This document shows positions 27,285 to 35,093 of a DNA stretch of 35,419 bases, piece by piece. The stretch lies in the UHGV virus genome UHGV-0163616; one strand, written 5' to 3'. The stretch comes from a virus. How positions within the stretch are numbered: position 1 is the stretch's first letter; each line of letters starts with the position of its first letter. Under the pieces are notes generated by a model. The model was not told where the DNA came from and did no database searches. It saw only the letters and a list, made by a program, of their open reading frames with translations. The translations under genes and the position numbers were made by a program.

Positions 27285-28001
27285 ATGGAAAATAAAAAAT
27301 CACTGACGACAGAACAGCTGGAAGACGCTAAGCGGCTTAAGGCTTTGTATGAGTCAAAAAAGAAAGAATTGGGAATAACCCAATACTCAATCGCTGATGA
27401 ACTGGGTATCACCCAAGGAGCGGTAGGGCATTATCTTAATGGCAGAAATGCGCTAAACGTTGAGGTTGCATCTGGTTTTGCACGATTGTTGCAAGTCTCA
27501 ATTGCTGATTTTAGCCAGTCAATTGCTGCCAAGGTTGCAGAACAGGCAGAAAGCCTTAAGAGCGATGCCAACGTAAGGTATGCAGGGGAATACAGAGCAG
27601 GAAAGAGGTATCCGGTGTTAAGCAGTATCCAGGCTGGCTCGTGGTGTGAAGCATGCGAACCATACACCATTAAAGACATAGATGTTTGGCTTGAGTCTGA
27701 CGCGCATATTCAAGGTAATGCGTTCTGGCTTAAAGTGGAAGGTGATTCAATGACGGCACCGGTTGGGTTAAGCATTCCAGAGGGAACATTCGTTCTTTTC
27801 GATACCGGAAGGGAGGCGATCAACGGCAGCTTGGTCATAGCAAAACTTTCTGACTCTAACGAAGCAACATTCAAGAAGCTGATAATCGACGGCGGAAATA
27901 AATACCTCAAGGGACTTAATCCTGCATGGCCTCTCGTGCCAATCAATGGAAACTGCAAGATTATAGGCGTTGCAATTGAGACAAAACTAAGGCTGGTTTG
28001 A
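27285..28001 (+). CDS. cI: CI repressor (HTH plus S24 LexA-like autocleavage domain)
   Basis: 238 aa; N-terminus resembles lambda CI; C-terminal domain (KRYPVLSSIQAGSWCEACEPYTIKDIDVWL...FWLKVEGDSMTAP...GNCKIIGVAIE) resembles 434 cI; Ala-Gly cleavage site and Ser/Lys dyad context present. Confidence 0.9.
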   Translation: MENKKSLTTEQLEDAKRLKALYESKKKELGITQYSIADELGITQGAVGHYLNGRNALNVEVASGFARLLQVSIADFSQSIAAKVAEQAESLKSDANVRYAGEYRAGKRYPVLSSIQAGSWCEACEPYTIKDIDVWLESDAHIQGNAFWLKVEGDSMTAPVGLSIPEGTFVLFDTGREAINGSLVIAKLSDSNEATFKKLIIDGGNKYLKGLNPAWPLVPINGNCKIIGVAIETKLRLV

Positions 28002-28387
28002 TCACGCAAGGGGCGATTATGGTTGGAACCGCTATAGCAAGCTTTTTGGGGATGTTGGCAATCTCAACAATTTACGGCTTAGCGCATGCTTTTATTGCGA
28101 AATCTCTATCAGAAAAAATAAGCCAGGCTTGGGCGCATAGATCAGCTCGTTTCATGATTCTGGTGATCATGGCAATACAAGGGATATCTGCATTTATCCT
28201 CTATGGATCAAGCTTATACCTATTGTATCAAGGCGCGACATTTACGCCTTACACCAGTGATTACGGAACTCTATACGATGGTAGTGAAGACATCTCTATG
28301 GCTTGGATCATCTTTGGTTTATCTATGGCCGTGTCTGTTGTAGCAGACATCATTAAGGTAATTCTCGTCTTAACCTTCGCTGACTAA
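27998..28387 (+). CDS. Small polytopic membrane protein translationally coupled to cI (occupies the rexAB slot between cI and OL)
   Basis: 129 aa with about 4 hydrophobic helices; ATG overlaps the cI stop (ATGA); no recognisable family from sequence alone. Confidence 0.6.
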   Translation: MITQGAIMVGTAIASFLGMLAISTIYGLAHAFIAKSLSEKISQAWAHRSARFMILVIMAIQGISAFILYGSSLYLLYQGATFTPYTSDYGTLYDGSEDISMAWIIFGLSMAVSVVADIIKVILVLTFAD

Positions 28388-28517
28388 CTCATAATCCCGG
28401 CAGCAATAGCTATCGGGATCCACTTCACATATCCCGCATAAAAAGCACTGAACAAGCAGACACCGAAAAAATAAATATCCTTTGTATTCATTTGCTTATC
28501 ATTATTTCACCAAAAAT

Positions 28518-28560
28518 AAATACCTTGGGTATTTACACAATAAAATACCTACAGTATTCT
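28518..28560 (+). promoter_or_regulatory. OL operators (AAATAC-CTTGG-GTATTT at 28518-28534; AAATAC-CTACA-GTATTC at 28543-28559) overlapping PL
   Basis: Same half-site consensus and 25-bp centre spacing as the OR sites; PL -35 TTTACA (28532-28537), 17-bp spacer, -10 TATTCT (28555-28560), pointing rightward into N. Confidence 0.65.
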
Positions 28561-28605
28561 TTAGCCATCAGCAGGACGCTGGAAGCCAAACGGAACAGAT
28601 TGGCA

Positions 28606-28647
28606 GGCTCTTTAACATTGATGGGATTGTCCCGCCGAAATGCGGGA
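28606..28647 (+). promoter_or_regulatory. nutL: boxA (GGCUCUUUAACA) and boxB hairpin (UCCCGC-CGAAAU-GCGGGA)
   Basis: Located between PL and N; boxB identical to the nutR copy. Confidence 0.65.
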
Positions 28648-28754
28648 ACCAAAGAGTAGTTGGCTTTGGGGTGACGTGAAGTGCAGCTGCACGACGGCAA
28701 CCGGAAGATAAGCACCCGGCGCGTCACCGCCAAAGTCAATCATCGGAGGTCAAC

Positions 28755-29027
28755 ATGACAGTAGTCATTACATATCTGGCTGACGATAACGCCAGAAATC
28801 GCCGCAGAGCACGCAGACAGGCTCAACGTGAGCAGGCAATGCAAGAACAGCGACTGGCGCGAAAAATTGCGCTAAAGCTCTCTGGTTGCGTCAGAGCAGA
28901 CAAAGCAGCTTCACTCGGAAGCCTTCGCTGCAAGAAGGTAGATGAATGCAGTGGAAGTATTTGCCTGCCAAACGTAGCTCTTTACGCGGCAGGCTACCGG
29001 AAATCAAAACAACTGACAGCGAGGTGA
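28755..29027 (+). CDS. N: N-type transcription antiterminator (P22 gp24-like) with arginine-rich motif
   Basis: 90 aa; ARM NARNRRRARRQAQREQ; C-terminus PNVALYAAGYRKSKQLTAR resembles the P22 gene 24 C-terminus; GGAGG Shine-Dalgarno; downstream of nutL. Confidence 0.8.
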   Translation: MTVVITYLADDNARNRRRARRQAQREQAMQEQRLARKIALKLSGCVRADKAASLGSLRCKKVDECSGSICLPNVALYAAGYRKSKQLTAR

Positions 29028-29048
29028 CGATCCCCCGCCGTCGAGGAA

Positions 29049-29588
29049 CTAAATTAGCTCATCAGCTTTACCAGCAAAGCGCATATAACACTCATGGAAC
29101 CAGACGTCAGGTATAACAAATTTCTCTTTACCTGACGCGCTGTAAGTCACACCTGAGCGATGGAGAAGACCTTTTCTCATAAGAGATAAAGCGACCGGAT
29201 CGCCGTGCTTAAGTACGATTTTGTTATTTGCCATAACAGCAAATGCTAAAACCTCTTTTTCCTGAATACTCAGAGAATTGAACAGGCGCTCAGTCTCCAC
29301 AATTACTTTAGCCTCATCTCTCTTACTGAGATATTTTTTATATCTGTCTGAAGATGCCAGAAATATAAACTCCATCACCCTGTTCAGAACATAACTGATA
29401 CACAAAAGCATTGCGTAATACATCCAGTGATCTGGAAGTATTTCGGGGTTCCTTATATCTACCCACTCTTTAATTGATGCTGGGGTGATTATTATCAAGG
29501 CAATTAAAATAATAAGCATATGAATTAACTGTTGTAGCGTAAGACCACGCAGGAAGAAACGTAATAGTTCCTGCCACCAGTTACTCAT
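29049..29588 (-). CDS. Membrane-anchored protein, candidate superinfection-exclusion/abortive-infection protein (SieB-like by size, topology and position)
   Basis: 179 aa; two N-terminal hydrophobic helices then a soluble domain; convergent with N, so expressible in the lysogen independently of PL; AT-rich. Family assignment not verified. Confidence 0.55.
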   Translation of the reverse strand: MSNWWQELLRFFLRGLTLQQLIHMLIILIALIIITPASIKEWVDIRNPEILPDHWMYYAMLLCISYVLNRVMEFIFLASSDRYKKYLSKRDEAKVIVETERLFNSLSIQEKEVLAFAVMANNKIVLKHGDPVALSLMRKGLLHRSGVTYSASGKEKFVIPDVWFHECYMRFAGKADELI

Positions 29589-29794
29589 CGGTGAATCTCC
29601 ATCATTCTCTCTGTAGGGGTGAATAGAGTTTATCCGATTTCTCGCTGTAGGGGTACACGAGAACCACCGAGCCTGATGTGGTTAAAAGACAGGCACAATC
29701 TTTACTACCGCAAGCCACGCAGTGAAATGGGGGTGACTTGTGTTGGTCGCCAGAAAATGAAATTAGGCAGCAAACCACTTATTTGAGGTGATAT

Positions 29795-30058
29795 ATGGAC
29801 AAGAAAATTAAATCATTGAAGCCAGGAATTGTTATCAGAGACATAAGTGGTGATTACGATACAGAGACATATGATATTTTATATGTGCATGCAGATGGAA
29901 AATGTCAGTATTCGAACGACATTTTTAATAATAAAGGTGGTGCCGAAATTGCTGCCACCACAGTTAATAAAGAGTTAGTAGCTAACGAGTCGTGGGATTA
30001 TTTTATGCCATCATCCACTTCTATGAACTGGAAAGTGGTTTTGTACATTCCATCATAA
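29795..30058 (+). CDS. Hypothetical protein (AT-rich accessory ORF in PL operon)
   Basis: 87 aa ORF, roughly 33-35 percent GC by eye; no recognised motif. Confidence 0.5.
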   Translation: MDKKIKSLKPGIVIRDISGDYDTETYDILYVHADGKCQYSNDIFNNKGGAEIAATTVNKELVANESWDYFMPSSTSMNWKVVLYIPS

Positions 30059-30148
30059 TTGTAGCTGCCGTTCAAAAATGAAAGTAAATCTAACATCACA
30101 GGCCGCATACTCGGCCTTTATTTTTGGCATAAATACACAGAGGCTAAC

Positions 30149-30445
30149 ATGGAATTTAAAGGTACTGAAGGTAAGTGGGAAATAATGATGGATGGCGATG
30201 AGATTAAAATCATCCAGGCAGACTCACTTGAAAATGGCGCAGGCTGGCGTTCGTATATTGCAATCTGTGAGGAAGTTCAATGCATTGAAGATGCCAATCT
30301 AATAGCGGCAGCGCCTGACCTTCTCGAAGCACTTCAGTTATTACTTAAGCAAACCAAAAATAGAACAACGACAACATATCCAGAATGGTATGGAACTGTT
30401 AATAAAGGTATCGCAGCAATCAGAAAAGCTCTTGGGGATAAGTAA
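30149..30445 (+). CDS. Hypothetical protein (first of a translationally coupled pair)
   Basis: 98 aa; stop overlaps next start (TAATG). Confidence 0.5.
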   Translation: MEFKGTEGKWEIMMDGDEIKIIQADSLENGAGWRSYIAICEEVQCIEDANLIAAAPDLLEALQLLLKQTKNRTTTTYPEWYGTVNKGIAAIRKALGDK

Positions 30446-30633
30446 TGAAAGTAAAAATAACTGCTTCTAATACCAGTTTTGTTAGTGTTGGTGATATTAC
30501 AGAAATAATAACAAACCATGATGGAACACAAGTTATGTGGTCTGCTTTCTGTAAAAGATATGAGCGAGTTAGTTGGTGTAAAAACGTATGGGGCGTCGAA
30601 TACGAAGAATTACCTGAAATGCATGACGAATAA
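30445..30633 (+). CDS. Hypothetical protein (second of coupled pair)
   Basis: 62 aa; followed by two hairpins, the second an intrinsic terminator. Confidence 0.45.
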   Translation: MKVKITASNTSFVSVGDITEIITNHDGTQVMWSAFCKRYERVSWCKNVWGVEYEELPEMHDE

Positions 30634-30728
30634 GCACTGTGTATTCATTCCAACGAGTGAATACACGGAGCAATGTCGCTCGTAACTAAACAGGAGCCGA
30701 CTTGTTCTGATTATTGGAAATCTTCTTT

Positions 30729-30756
30729 GCCCTCCAATGTGAGGGCAATTTTTTAT
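30729..30756 (+). terminator. Intrinsic terminator (GCCCUC-CAAUGU-GAGGGC then AAUUUUUUAU)
   Basis: Perfect 6-bp GC stem plus U-tract on plus strand; preceded by a 9-bp-stem hairpin at 30639-30666. Confidence 0.6.
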
Positions 30757-30774
30757 CTATGAGGATATGAACAG

Positions 30775-31143
30775 ATGTCAAACATCAAAAAATACATCAT
30801 TGATTACGACTGGAAAGCATCAATAGAAATTGAAATCGACCATGACGTAATGACAGAGGAAAAACTTCACCAGATTAATAATTTCTGGTCAGACTCTGAA
30901 TACAGACTCAAAAAACACGGCTCTGTATTAAATGCTGTATTAATCATGCTAGCGCAACATGCTCTGCTTATAGCAATTTCAAGCGACTTAAATGCATATG
31001 GTGTTGTGTGTGAGTTCGACTGGAATGATGGAAATGGTCAGGAAGGATGGCCTCCAATGGATGGTAGCGAAGGAATAAGAATTACCGATATCGACACATC
31101 TGGAATATTTGATTCAGATGATATGACTATCAAAGCCGCCTGA
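30775..31143 (+). CDS. Hypothetical protein
   Basis: 122 aa acidic ORF; AT-rich. Confidence 0.55.
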   Translation: MSNIKKYIIDYDWKASIEIEIDHDVMTEEKLHQINNFWSDSEYRLKKHGSVLNAVLIMLAQHALLIAISSDLNAYGVVCEFDWNDGNGQEGWPPMDGSEGIRITDIDTSGIFDSDDMTIKAA

Positions 31144-31218
31144 GCGCGGCTTTACCGCATACCAATAACGCTTCACTCGAGGCGTTTTCGTTATGCAATC
31201 AAACAGAAGGAGCATCCT

Positions 31219-31389
31219 ATGCAACAGTTCGCTATTGCAGGGGCGGCATCGGTTCGCCCTTTCAACCCGATTTTATCGGTACAGCATTCAAGAAAAAACA
31301 TTCTAACCGGAGCAGACTTTAAACAACCAAGAATGAAAAGTTTGCTCGAAAAGCTTTGGGATATTTTGAAACAACAAGGCCGCCCATGA
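31219..31389 (+). CDS. cIII: CIII-like protein (candidate FtsH inhibitor)
   Basis: 56 aa ORF not in the ORF track; N-terminus MQQFAIAG and C-terminus LWDILKQQGRP align with lambda CIII (MQYAIAG...LIDILNQPGVP); GGAG Shine-Dalgarno upstream. Confidence 0.5.
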   Translation: MQQFAIAGAASVRPFNPILSVQHSRKNILTGADFKQPRMKSLLEKLWDILKQQGRP

Positions 31390-31470
31390 GTTTTACAGAT
31401 AACTGGTCAGACGAAGAATTCATTCGTCAGATGAACAAAATGCTCAATCAGCACAAAGAACAGGAGAAAG

Positions 31471-31782
31471 ATGATGATTCTGACTCTGAATGATAAGCGT
31501 GAAATATCGCAAATCATCGCAAGTTTTACTGATGAAGATTACGAACGAATCAACAGTGAAGTTGATCGCCTCTGCAAACGCTGCGACCCAATAAGCGAAA
31601 TGCTTCGCTCATATAAGCCAGATGAACACACTAAGGACGCTATCGACTGGCTGGAAGATGATGACTGTGACTATCAGGAAAAAGCCGCTGAATGGTTCTG
31701 GGATGCAATAACCGAAAGAGTTAAGGCTGAATATGCCTTCGCAATATTCAAACGCAGACACATTTATGGAGAAGCAGCATGA
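31471..31782 (+). CDS. Hypothetical protein upstream of recT
   Basis: 103 aa; stop overlaps recT start (ATGA). Confidence 0.55.
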   Translation: MMILTLNDKREISQIIASFTDEDYERINSEVDRLCKRCDPISEMLRSYKPDEHTKDAIDWLEDDDCDYQEKAAEWFWDAITERVKAEYAFAIFKRRHIYGEAA

Positions 31783-33473: not shown

Positions 33474-33653
33474 CAAAGAGGAATTTACCATGAGAGGACT
33501 TGCATACAATCCCGGCATTCTTCCGGCAGAAATGATTATTCGCCAACGCGTAAAACCAATGCCATCGAGAGAGGAATTGCTTAAAAGAAATAGTTTCGGT
33601 TCTGTTAATGACAACAGATATCTGAATGCGATGTGGCGCAAAGGAGGCAACCA

Positions 33654-34283
33654 GTGAGCGAAATTAACTATCAGGCACTGCGTGATGTGGCAGAGAAAGC
33701 AACGTGGGGAGACTGGGACTCATATAAACCACACCGTGGCGCACGAGGTTATGAGGTCCGACTAAGTAGTCAGGCCATTGCGCAACACGTTCTGAAAAAC
33801 AACGCTGAATTTATTGCTGCCTTTAATCCAAAGATTGCTTTGGCACTACTGGATGAACGGGAAAGGAACCAGCAATACATCAAATCCCGCGACCAGGAGA
33901 ACGAGGAAATTGCGCTAACGGTAGGGAAGCTGCGTGTTGAGCTGGAAGCAGCAGAGAATCGCAACGCAAAATTACAAAGCGAGAATGCATACATCCGCAA
34001 CCGGTACAAAGAACTGGACCTATTAATCGGGAAAAACATTCTGGTCATGCAAGCTGCCATTATCGAATGGCAATCGACTGGCGACGCTAAAAGCGGACTG
34101 GCATGGATTTATAACACACTGTTTGGCCCTGGCGAATTACCGGACGAATCTGAGAAAGATGCTCAGGCCTACTTTAATCGCAAATATGCACCGATTGACG
34201 AAAAGCTTATGGCGCTTCACAAGTGGTTTTGGGAACAAAGTGAAGCCGAGCGCGCCGCTGGCATTCGCATCAAAGGAGAGTGA
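33654..34283 (+). CDS. Ead/Ea22-like protein
   Basis: GTG start at 33654 with AGGAGG 5 nt upstream giving [21 protein letters not shown]..., the N-terminus typical of Ead/Ea22-like prophage proteins; coiled-coil middle. Confidence 0.65.
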
Positions 34284-34478: not shown

Positions 34479-35093
34479 ATGACCACTATTACCAAAGAAC
34501 GTATCGAATTATTCATTAAAAATCCGCTTGAAAACGGGCTTACTCGTGGCGAACAAATGGAACTGGCACGAATTGCACTGGCATCACTGGAACGCGAACA
34601 GATTCGCCACGAGCATGCCAAATGGTCTGACTCCACATTTGGCTGCGTTGGCCCCATTGGTCCACTGAAACACCTCTCAAAAGAGGCACTGGAAGCCGCA
34701 GCCGAACCAGACGATCTTAGCGAGTGGGCTGATATGCAGTTTCTGTTGTGGGATTCACAGCGCCGTGCTGGCATCAGCGATGCTGAAATTACCGCTGCTA
34801 TGGAAGATAAATTGAAGATCAACATGGAGCGCCAGTGGCCTGAGCCAAAAGATGGTGAGCCTCGCTTGCACATTAAAGAACCCGGCAACTCTCCGGTAAT
34901 TCCGGATGGTTGGATAAGCTGTAGTGAGCGAATGCCAAGCGAAGAAGATGTTTTGGTTTATTGCTCAGACACAAAAGAGCAGATGGTAGGGTTTCACAAA
35001 GGTAAAGGGTTATTTCAATTCTTTTACATGAATGGTGTTGAGGGGGTATGTGAGCCGTCACACTGGATGACGCTACCAGAGCCTCCACTTTGA
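34479..35093 (+). CDS. Hypothetical protein, DUF550/DUF551-like (common prophage early-left gene)
   Basis: 204 aa; N-terminal helical domain and C-terminal Cys/Trp-containing domain seen in enterobacterial prophage proteins; assignment from memory. Confidence 0.5.
   Translation: MTTITKERIELFIKNPLENGLTRGEQMELARIALASLEREQIRHEHAKWSDSTFGCVGPIGPLKHLSKEALEAAAEPDDLSEWADMQFLLWDSQRRAGISDAEITAAMEDKLKINMERQWPEPKDGEPRLHIKEPGNSPVIPDGWISCSERMPSEEDVLVYCSDTKEQMVGFHKGKGLFQFFYMNGVEGVCEPSHWMTLPEPPL

Follow-up and report, generated by a model that had tools for sequence, protein, structure and literature searches.

In bacteriophage lambda, the genes ea10, ral, orf28 and sieB are non-essential (PMC10695390), and the interval between ral and ea10 encodes a small RNA (sRNA), formerly LPR1 and since renamed PreS, that is bound by Hfq, is ~88 nucleotides (nt) long, is processed to ~68 nt and has the terminator tL2a as its 3' end (bioRxiv 10.1101/2024.10.31.621285). 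PreS is made in the lytic cycle only and not in lysogens, activates the translation of dnaN, represses alaS and aids phage DNA replication, and LPR1 is reported to be conserved among lambdoid phages at an identity of at least 92% (bioRxiv 10.1101/2024.10.31.621285). The ral region was also among the phage accessory regions, hotspots of counter-defence, that were screened by Silas et al. (bioRxiv 10.1101/2023.04.06.535777; PMC12373910), and one gene of that region, orf184, triggers the gop-beta-cII abortive system (bioRxiv 10.1101/2023.04.06.535777). Here we describe positions 29795-31143 of the virus genome UHGV-0163616, whose 35,419 nt of DNA we refer to as the window. The window is a P22-like Escherichia coli phage with CUS-3, phiv205-1 and Kapi1 as relatives, and the stretch is probably the ral-ea10 accessory region of its N-dependent early-left (PL) operon, in which cassettes for putative counter-defence-type proteins are arranged around PreS. 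As judged from sequence comparison, three interchangeable cassettes surround an invariant anchor composed of a hairpin and PreS, and what is new here is how known cassettes are combined, within an established lambda/P22 hotspot.

The stretch contains four open reading frames (ORFs) of 87, 98, 62 and 122 amino acids (aa), with the sizes and at the positions reported in an earlier annotation made from the DNA letters alone (hereafter the original prediction). The encoded proteins are small and all acidic, with isoelectric points (pI) of 4.4-5.0. That the stretch is AT-rich, as also proposed originally, was borne out: its G+C content is 38.2% as compared to 47.1% for the whole window, which places it in the 2nd percentile among windows of the same size. 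Terminator-like sites are frequent, with 8 present within the 3.3 kb scanned where 2.5 +/- 1.5 were expected.

The anchor lies between the third and the fourth ORF, on the plus strand. It begins with a hairpin with a perfect 14-bp stem (30637-30650 and 30655-30668) and a 4-nt loop, situated immediately 5' of PreS, which the original prediction had correctly recognized as real at 30639-30666, a span that takes in only the inner part of 30637-30668. The hairpin has a folding energy of -21.7 kcal/mol (z = -7.4), a value matched by 0 of 200 shuffled sequences. The putative PreS sequence that follows (30668-30755) is identical to that of lambda at 86 of 88 nt, the two differences being located in the loop and at the base of the stem of the terminator, and counting 88 nt back from the U-tail leads to 30668, the final base of the hairpin. 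Two blocks within it (30703-30712 and 30718-30729; 12 + 10 nt) are, like their counterparts in lambda, perfectly complementary to positions -47 to -17 of dnaN in E. coli K-12. An intrinsic terminator, which was anticipated by the original prediction and which we take as the equivalent of lambda tL2a, forms the PreS 3' end (30727-30754) and consists of an 8-bp G+C-rich stem (30727-30748) and the run TTTTTT (30749-30754). Hairpin and terminator together match the ral-ea10 interval of lambda at almost every base. What had been read as mere punctuation therefore appears to be the lambda tL2a region that encodes PreS/LPR1. A scan of 28300-31600 against Rfam 15 returned chance matches alone; PreS has no Rfam entry.

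The anchor is widespread and has gone mostly unannotated. A 127-nt element comprising the hairpin and PreS recurs with 95% or higher identity in 325 phage records, and the annotation is 'none' for nearly all of the matches listed (327 matching records). Among the related sequences that we gathered the element occurs 103 times, and across these 103 loci the hairpin is built from three unrelated stem sequences (of 14, 11 and 11 bp) at an identical position; the variants were compared by separate folds, the MAFFT alignment having placed them out of register. The occurrence of unrelated stems at one position argues that the hairpin would act through its RNA fold and not as a sequence bound by protein, and suggests that it is an RNA processing or stabilizing element and a recombination joint. 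The hairpin is not mentioned in the preprint that describes PreS (bioRxiv 10.1101/2024.10.31.621285). We note that the unrelated ORFs found upstream of the hairpin all finish with ...CGAATAA immediately before the stem. We note also that P22-like loci of the Salmonella type (L005-L008 and P22) carry, after the partner ORF described below, a diverged PreS-like sequence that retains the first 20 nt at the 5' end but has a rebuilt internal stem and another terminator.

The cassettes became apparent from more than 100 related loci, gathered from E. coli and Salmonella prophages, lambda, P22, APC_JM3.2 and IMG/VR contigs. Slot 1, directly after N or a relic of N, contains orf87, ral, orf28 together with ral, an HNH gene, a Nmad5-family gene or others; its left edge is a common ribosome-binding site and start (TATTTGAGGTGATATATG), and its right edge is a terminator-like hairpin such as that found after lambda ral. 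Slot 2 contains a gene of the Y8K6 family and a small overlapping partner ORF. In slot 3, after tL2a, 17 loci have Ea10 and 13 have a protein of 322-324 aa; P22 has gene 17, and elsewhere there are other genes or cIII follows with no gene in between. The 324-aa protein of an E. coli prophage (locus L010, 4633-5607) has a Pfam match to Gad1 (PF25705, anti-Gabija), and P22 gene 17 (locus L114, 1915-2226), which is in the slot of ea10, is annotated as serving growth on Fels-2 lysogens. The 322-aa protein of locus L015, which we also tested, has no Pfam match.

Slot 1 of the window is filled by orf87 (29795-30058, plus strand; 87 aa, pI 4.9), which stands in the position of ral behind a strong ribosome-binding site (GAGGTGA) and has a full-length match to phrog_33140 (E 3.4e-51). 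The slot is closed by a terminator-like hairpin and T-run (30100-30127, plus strand), the sequence of which is also found 3' of ral in lambda (...GGCCTTTATTTTTGGCATAAATA...). The gene itself is rare, being present in 8 of 5,426 E. coli genomes and on 12 of 2.9 million IMG/VR contigs; it has only 4 matches among 5.8 billion proteins, and relatives were found in 0 of the 185,579 genomes of a one-genome-per-species set. Where it does occur, orf87 is intact in every copy and is followed by many differing slot-2 and slot-3 contents. The protein has no Pfam match at E<=1 (PF11058 included) and no similarity to P22 Ral by BLAST; position alone is what orf87 and Ral appear to have in common. Similarly restricted is orf62 (30445-30633, plus strand; 62 aa), the variable partner ORF of slot 2, for which we found only 19 close homologues and a full-length match to phrog_10407 (E 9.5e-46). 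Scans of Pfam, NCBIfam and PADLOC returned no family for orf87, orf98 or orf62, apart from a single match of orf62 to DUF2124 that was below threshold and was dismissed as due to chance.

Distributions as narrow as these, and copies of orf87 that are too alike for an analysis of non-synonymous and synonymous substitutions (dN/dS), are what would be expected if some of the ORFs, orf87 and orf62 especially, were chance frames in an AT-rich spacer that encode nothing. This reading is close to refuted. Over 76 aa, the product of orf87 shares 42% identity with an annotated 83-aa ORF of the unrelated virulent Klebsiella myovirus KB57. For orf62, identities of 57-61% were found to the C-terminal 54 aa of ORF076 (144 aa) of the T4-like Krischvirus Phi1 (locus L013, 2237-2671) and to a 58-aa ORF of the 9NA-like Salmonella phage SP069 (locus L014, 2492-2668). 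Further, both ORFs belong to PHROG families over their full lengths, all copies are intact, and the ribosome-binding site of orf87 is strong. Because conservation is seen at the level of protein, including relatives of orf87 and orf62 in virulent phages, we conclude from comparative evidence that all four ORFs are true protein genes; the drift irrespective of reading frame that the original prediction had set against protein-level conservation is not what we observe for any of the four. Moreover, since the orf62 domain is a C-terminal fusion in the T4-like ORF076 and free-standing in SP069, it appears to be transferred between temperate and virulent phages.

The first gene of slot 2, orf98 (30149-30445, plus strand; 98 aa), has 165 homologues in Enterobacteriaceae with lengths of 95-100 aa, and those that are 58-98% identical to it bear PF27050 (Phage_P22_Y8K6), a group that has P22 orf78 as its prototype and that NCBI names the 'XkdD/Y8K6 family'. 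Scans of orf98 itself gave neither PF27050 nor any other family in Pfam or NCBIfam; PF27050 is the precomputed assignment of proteins 97-98% identical to it. Comparison of the orf98 profile to P22 orf78 with hhalign gave a probability of 96.6% (E 6.9e-10; aa 46-98 against 31-78), the similarity being limited to a C-terminal helical hairpin. On these grounds we assign orf98 as a member of the Y8K6 family, PF27050. The Y8K6 alignment displays a conserved N-terminal MEFKGTxGxW, a conserved helix (EDANLIAAAPDLLEALQ) and a conserved AAISKALGEE end, with aa 64-88 hypervariable. In a model made with AlphaFold2 (AF2; predicted local distance difference test (pLDDT) score 75.5), orf98 is a beta-hairpin followed by a helical hairpin that has the hypervariable stretch at its tip. 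A Foldseek search of the PDB with this model found no solved relative (best E 1.5, generic helical hairpins).

The stop of orf98 and the start of orf62 overlap in the sequence TAATG (30443-30447), as stated in the original prediction, and such an arrangement is the rule for the family: a small ORF starts between -11 and +8 nt from the Y8K6 stop in 90 of 93 Y8K6 loci, and P22 also has the Y8K6 gene with an overlapping small ORF. In most loci the partner ORF ends 32-34 nt upstream of PreS, a gap that corresponds in length to the hairpin. This overlap, together with a Y8K6 protein that has a conserved base and a hypervariable tip, raises the possibility that the products of orf98 and orf62 work as one unit of two proteins, toxin-antitoxin-like or a scaffold with its effector, in which the Y8K6 protein binds or controls its partner. 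We consider such a unit quite unlikely, because the partners come from unrelated families, of which there are at least four (orf62-like in 27 loci, a MNKKYIVEV type of 52-53 aa in 32, an ...AMLKARE type of 66-78 aa in ~21 and a type of 41 aa in 8), and one Y8K6 variant with an identical tip pairs with three of them, namely orf62, the 52-aa MNKKYIVEV type and the ...AMLKARE type. The notion that tip and partner family are a cognate pair was rejected on account of this lack of co-variation, and with it the suggestion that the coupled ORFs are a co-evolving pair. In addition, orf62-like domains occur without a Y8K6 gene in T4-like phages and in SP069, both proteins are acidic, and neither matches a toxin-antitoxin or defence family. 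A Y8K6 variant with three partners, and orf87 with varied neighbours, instead indicate that the slots assort independently.

The slot-3 cassette of the window is formed by ea10 (30775-31143, plus strand; 122 aa), and a terminator-like hairpin (31167-31192, plus strand) closes it. The product matches the full profile of Pfam DUF2528 (PF10800) at 160.6 bits (cut-off 22; E 1.8e-47) and falls in phrog_646 (E 6.2e-71); its gene is ~96% identical in DNA to that of lambda and has the length (122 aa) and the position (from tL2a to cIII) found there. We therefore identify the fourth ORF, by homology, as lambda Ea10. The gene is common lambdoid stock and not the recently acquired cargo that the stretch as a whole had been supposed to be. 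The description of all four ORFs as uncharacterized was likewise too strong: the fourth is Ea10 and orf98 has a Pfam family, while orf87 and orf62 are indeed narrowly distributed.

Ea10 is strongly acidic (pI 4.36, net charge -13). An alignment of 62 sequences from its family of 247 clusters served as input to AF2, which predicted a fold (pLDDT 96.5, predicted TM-score (pTM) 0.87) made up of an N-terminal beta-hairpin, four helices and a returning strand. The size of the family and the confidence of this model further mark ea10 as a real gene. Foldseek found no relative of this model (best E 2.1, TM 0.22), a profile search against solved structures gave nothing significant, and scans of Pfam, NCBIfam and PADLOC returned DUF2528 alone. 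Among the top 33 matches were stomatin, QmcA, PH1511, HflK, prohibitin, flotillin and erlin, and cIII, the gene for an FtsH inhibitor, comes directly after ea10 in the window as well as in lambda and related prophages. These observations could be taken to mean that Ea10, as a soluble protein of SPFH-like character, acts jointly with CIII on FtsH-HflKC, tuning the stability of CII and the choice between lysis and lysogeny. In our view this is very unlikely: in addition to the Foldseek result, hhalign comparisons to E. coli HflC and HflK gave a probability of 0.2% each, there is no Pfam match to Band_7 at E<=1, and many phages have cIII without ea10, in a slot that also takes Gad1 or gp17. SPFH/band-7 proteins differ from Ea10, moreover, in that Ea10 is a soluble, acidic protein of 122 aa without a membrane anchor or a coiled-coil tail. 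Ea10 is thus a protein with a confidently predicted fold and no clear relative of solved structure, and its function will not come from homology.

How would such a region work? Because a terminator-like hairpin closes each cassette, production of the proteins is expected to depend on read-through from PL by N-modified RNA polymerase and so to be confined to lytic growth. PreS would be released at tL2a by termination or by processing of the PL transcript and, together with Hfq, would pair with the dnaN leader, leading to more beta-clamp and so helping phage DNA replication. The most likely role of the hairpin is to set where PreS begins or to protect the mRNA upstream of it. As for the four proteins, they are presumably dispensable, on the example of lambda, and from their position they most likely act early and singly, each binding and neutralizing a protein of the host or of a rival phage in the manner of Ral, Gad1 and gp17. 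Since the known occupants of these slots are counter-defence genes, counter-defence or host takeover is our best guess for the uncharacterized proteins, by analogy of position only.

The same cassettes might instead be morons, expressed from the prophage to shield the lysogen by exclusion or defence, rather than lytic counter-defence factors. Their low G+C content and the moron-like possession of a terminator-like hairpin for each cassette are compatible with this, as are the adjoining exclusion gene sieB and the presence of a membrane protein in the rex slot beside cI. However, the four ORFs are on the PL strand downstream of N, and a scan of the plus strand found no promoter-like site upstream of any of them; PADLOC gave no matches to defence families; lambda PreS, which comes from the same transcript, is a product of the lytic cycle that lysogens do not make; and the characterized occupants of the slots (Ral, Gad1 and gp17) work for the infecting phage. 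We therefore regard prophage-expressed morons as unlikely and favor cassettes that serve lytic growth.

Several observations weigh against the reading of the stretch as an N-dependent region of counter-defence-type cassettes around PreS. Read-through of the three terminators by N is assumed from lambda, and the expression of PreS, its binding by Hfq and its processing would follow from the lambda preprint. None of the four proteins matches a known anti-restriction, anti-defence, defence or toxin-antitoxin family in Pfam, NCBIfam or PADLOC (the last at E<=1), and sequence searches with all four against solved structures, as well as Foldseek searches with orf98 and Ea10, gave nothing significant. 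Because no ORF matches a known defence-related family, the functional claim is one made by position only. The original prediction had placed the ORFs in an anti-restriction or host-takeover slot and proposed profile and structure searches for anti-restriction or toxin-antitoxin folds; the accessory hotspot stands, with Ral, Gad1, gp17, HNH and Nmad5 in the relatives, while no family match for any of the ORFs, and no such fold, emerged from the sequence scans or from Foldseek with orf98 and Ea10. For orf87, five copies offer just 10 variable sites, and dN/dS ratios of ~0.2-0.5 calculated from so few do not suffice to prove purifying selection. Lastly, the exact combination of four ORFs was not found in the 5,426 E. 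coli genomes, in 50,697 phage records or in the IMG/VR loci inspected, and nothing shows that the four ORFs act together.

The flanks of the accessory region are those of a PL operon. Upstream lies a nutL-like site (28607-28647, plus strand), read from the sequence as a boxA (GCTCTTTAAC, 28607-28616) and a boxB-like hairpin (TCCCGC-CGAAAT-GCGGGA, 28630-28647) and assigned by analogy with the annotated nutL sites of lambda and P22. Downstream of this putative site is the gene for an N-type antiterminator of 90 aa (28755-29027, plus strand) that is P22 gene-24-like (Pfam N_peptide, E 4.6e-16) and 61% identical to the C-terminus of P22 gp24, and then, on the minus strand, the superinfection-exclusion gene sieB (29049-29588; Pfam SieB, E 3e-20; phrog_1301, E 3.6e-94). 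A direct repeat (CTGTAGGGGT) upstream of sieB, at 29611-29620 and 29645-29654, is kept in lambda and may be a regulatory site for sieB.

Between N and orf87 a lambda-type N has left a relic of its 3' end (~29709-29786, plus strand), which forms the left boundary of slot 1 and sits in an ORF (29619-29786, plus strand) downstream of sieB, in a phage that also has its own P22-type N. The relic terminates with ...KPRSEMGVTCVGRQKMKLGSKPLI*, which is identical to the end of an intact 108-aa N in a prophage of E. coli EC28, where orf87 comes directly after the intact N, and it is joined to a lambda-like segment from upstream of sieB at the microhomology TAC(C/A)GCAAGCCAC. A cIII-like gene (31219-31389, plus strand; phrog_550 (CIII), E 1e-22) is the right boundary of the accessory region. 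The hairpins at 30100-30127 and 31167-31192, sieB and the N relic had all escaped the original prediction. Farther away, a 129-aa membrane protein (phrog_6534; 27998-28387, plus strand) occupies the place of lambda rexAB and overlaps the stop of cI, and a convergent 35-aa hydrophobic ORF (28384-28491, minus strand) is found just before PL; both could be exclusion functions expressed from the prophage. A dATP/dGTP pyrophosphohydrolase (PF04447) fused to DUF551 is encoded further down the PL operon, as is an Ead/Ea22-like protein (34479-35093 and 33633-34283).

Taken alone, the finding is of little importance, as it adds one more permutation to a hotspot long familiar to those who work on lambda and P22. 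As the fixed anchor of cassette exchange, however, the mostly unannotated hairpin and PreS provide a practical landmark for accessory genes in lambdoid prophages, and the rule of a Y8K6 gene with a variable partner, together with the rare orf87 in the ral slot, defines testable candidate counter-defence genes.

The accessory regions described by Silas et al. resemble that of the window in consisting of small, variable, non-essential and horizontally moving genes between conserved flanks. A sequence search of the supplement text of their papers found none of the four window proteins, and their orf184 (MEALVVERSEDGYW...), a different protein, is absent from the window and from loci L001-L018. 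Ral, Gad1 and P22 gp17 occupy the same genomic positions as the window proteins and have the same PL-driven early expression, but they have no sequence similarity to orf87, orf98, orf62 or Ea10, and their functions are not transferable. P22 has sieB in the matching place and orientation, and follows the three-slot plan of the window: ral is succeeded by orf78 (Y8K6) with an overlapping ORF, next come hairpin, PreS-like sequence and terminator, and gene 17 and c3 complete the order. The overlapping small ORF of P22 goes by the name 'orf87' and is 67 aa long. P22 differs from the window in having ral in slot 1 and, in slot 3, gene 17, which is unrelated to Ea10; its Y8K6 protein has only the C-terminal helical hairpin in common with orf98, and the body of its PreS is of the diverged Salmonella type. 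The ral-ea10 interval of lambda has, like the window, the order N, sieB on the opposite strand, slot-1 gene, hairpin, PreS/tL2a, ea10 and cIII, and its hairpin and PreS element is at least 98% identical to that of the window. Lambda has orf28 and ral where the window has orf87, and the N of the window is of the P22 type, accompanied by the 3' relic of a lambda-type N. The Y8K6 and orf62 cassette of the window is extra, lambda having only ~30 nt (GGCATAAATAACAGAATAAACACTGCACTGTG) at that place, and lambda resembles a version of this plan whose slot 2 is unfilled.

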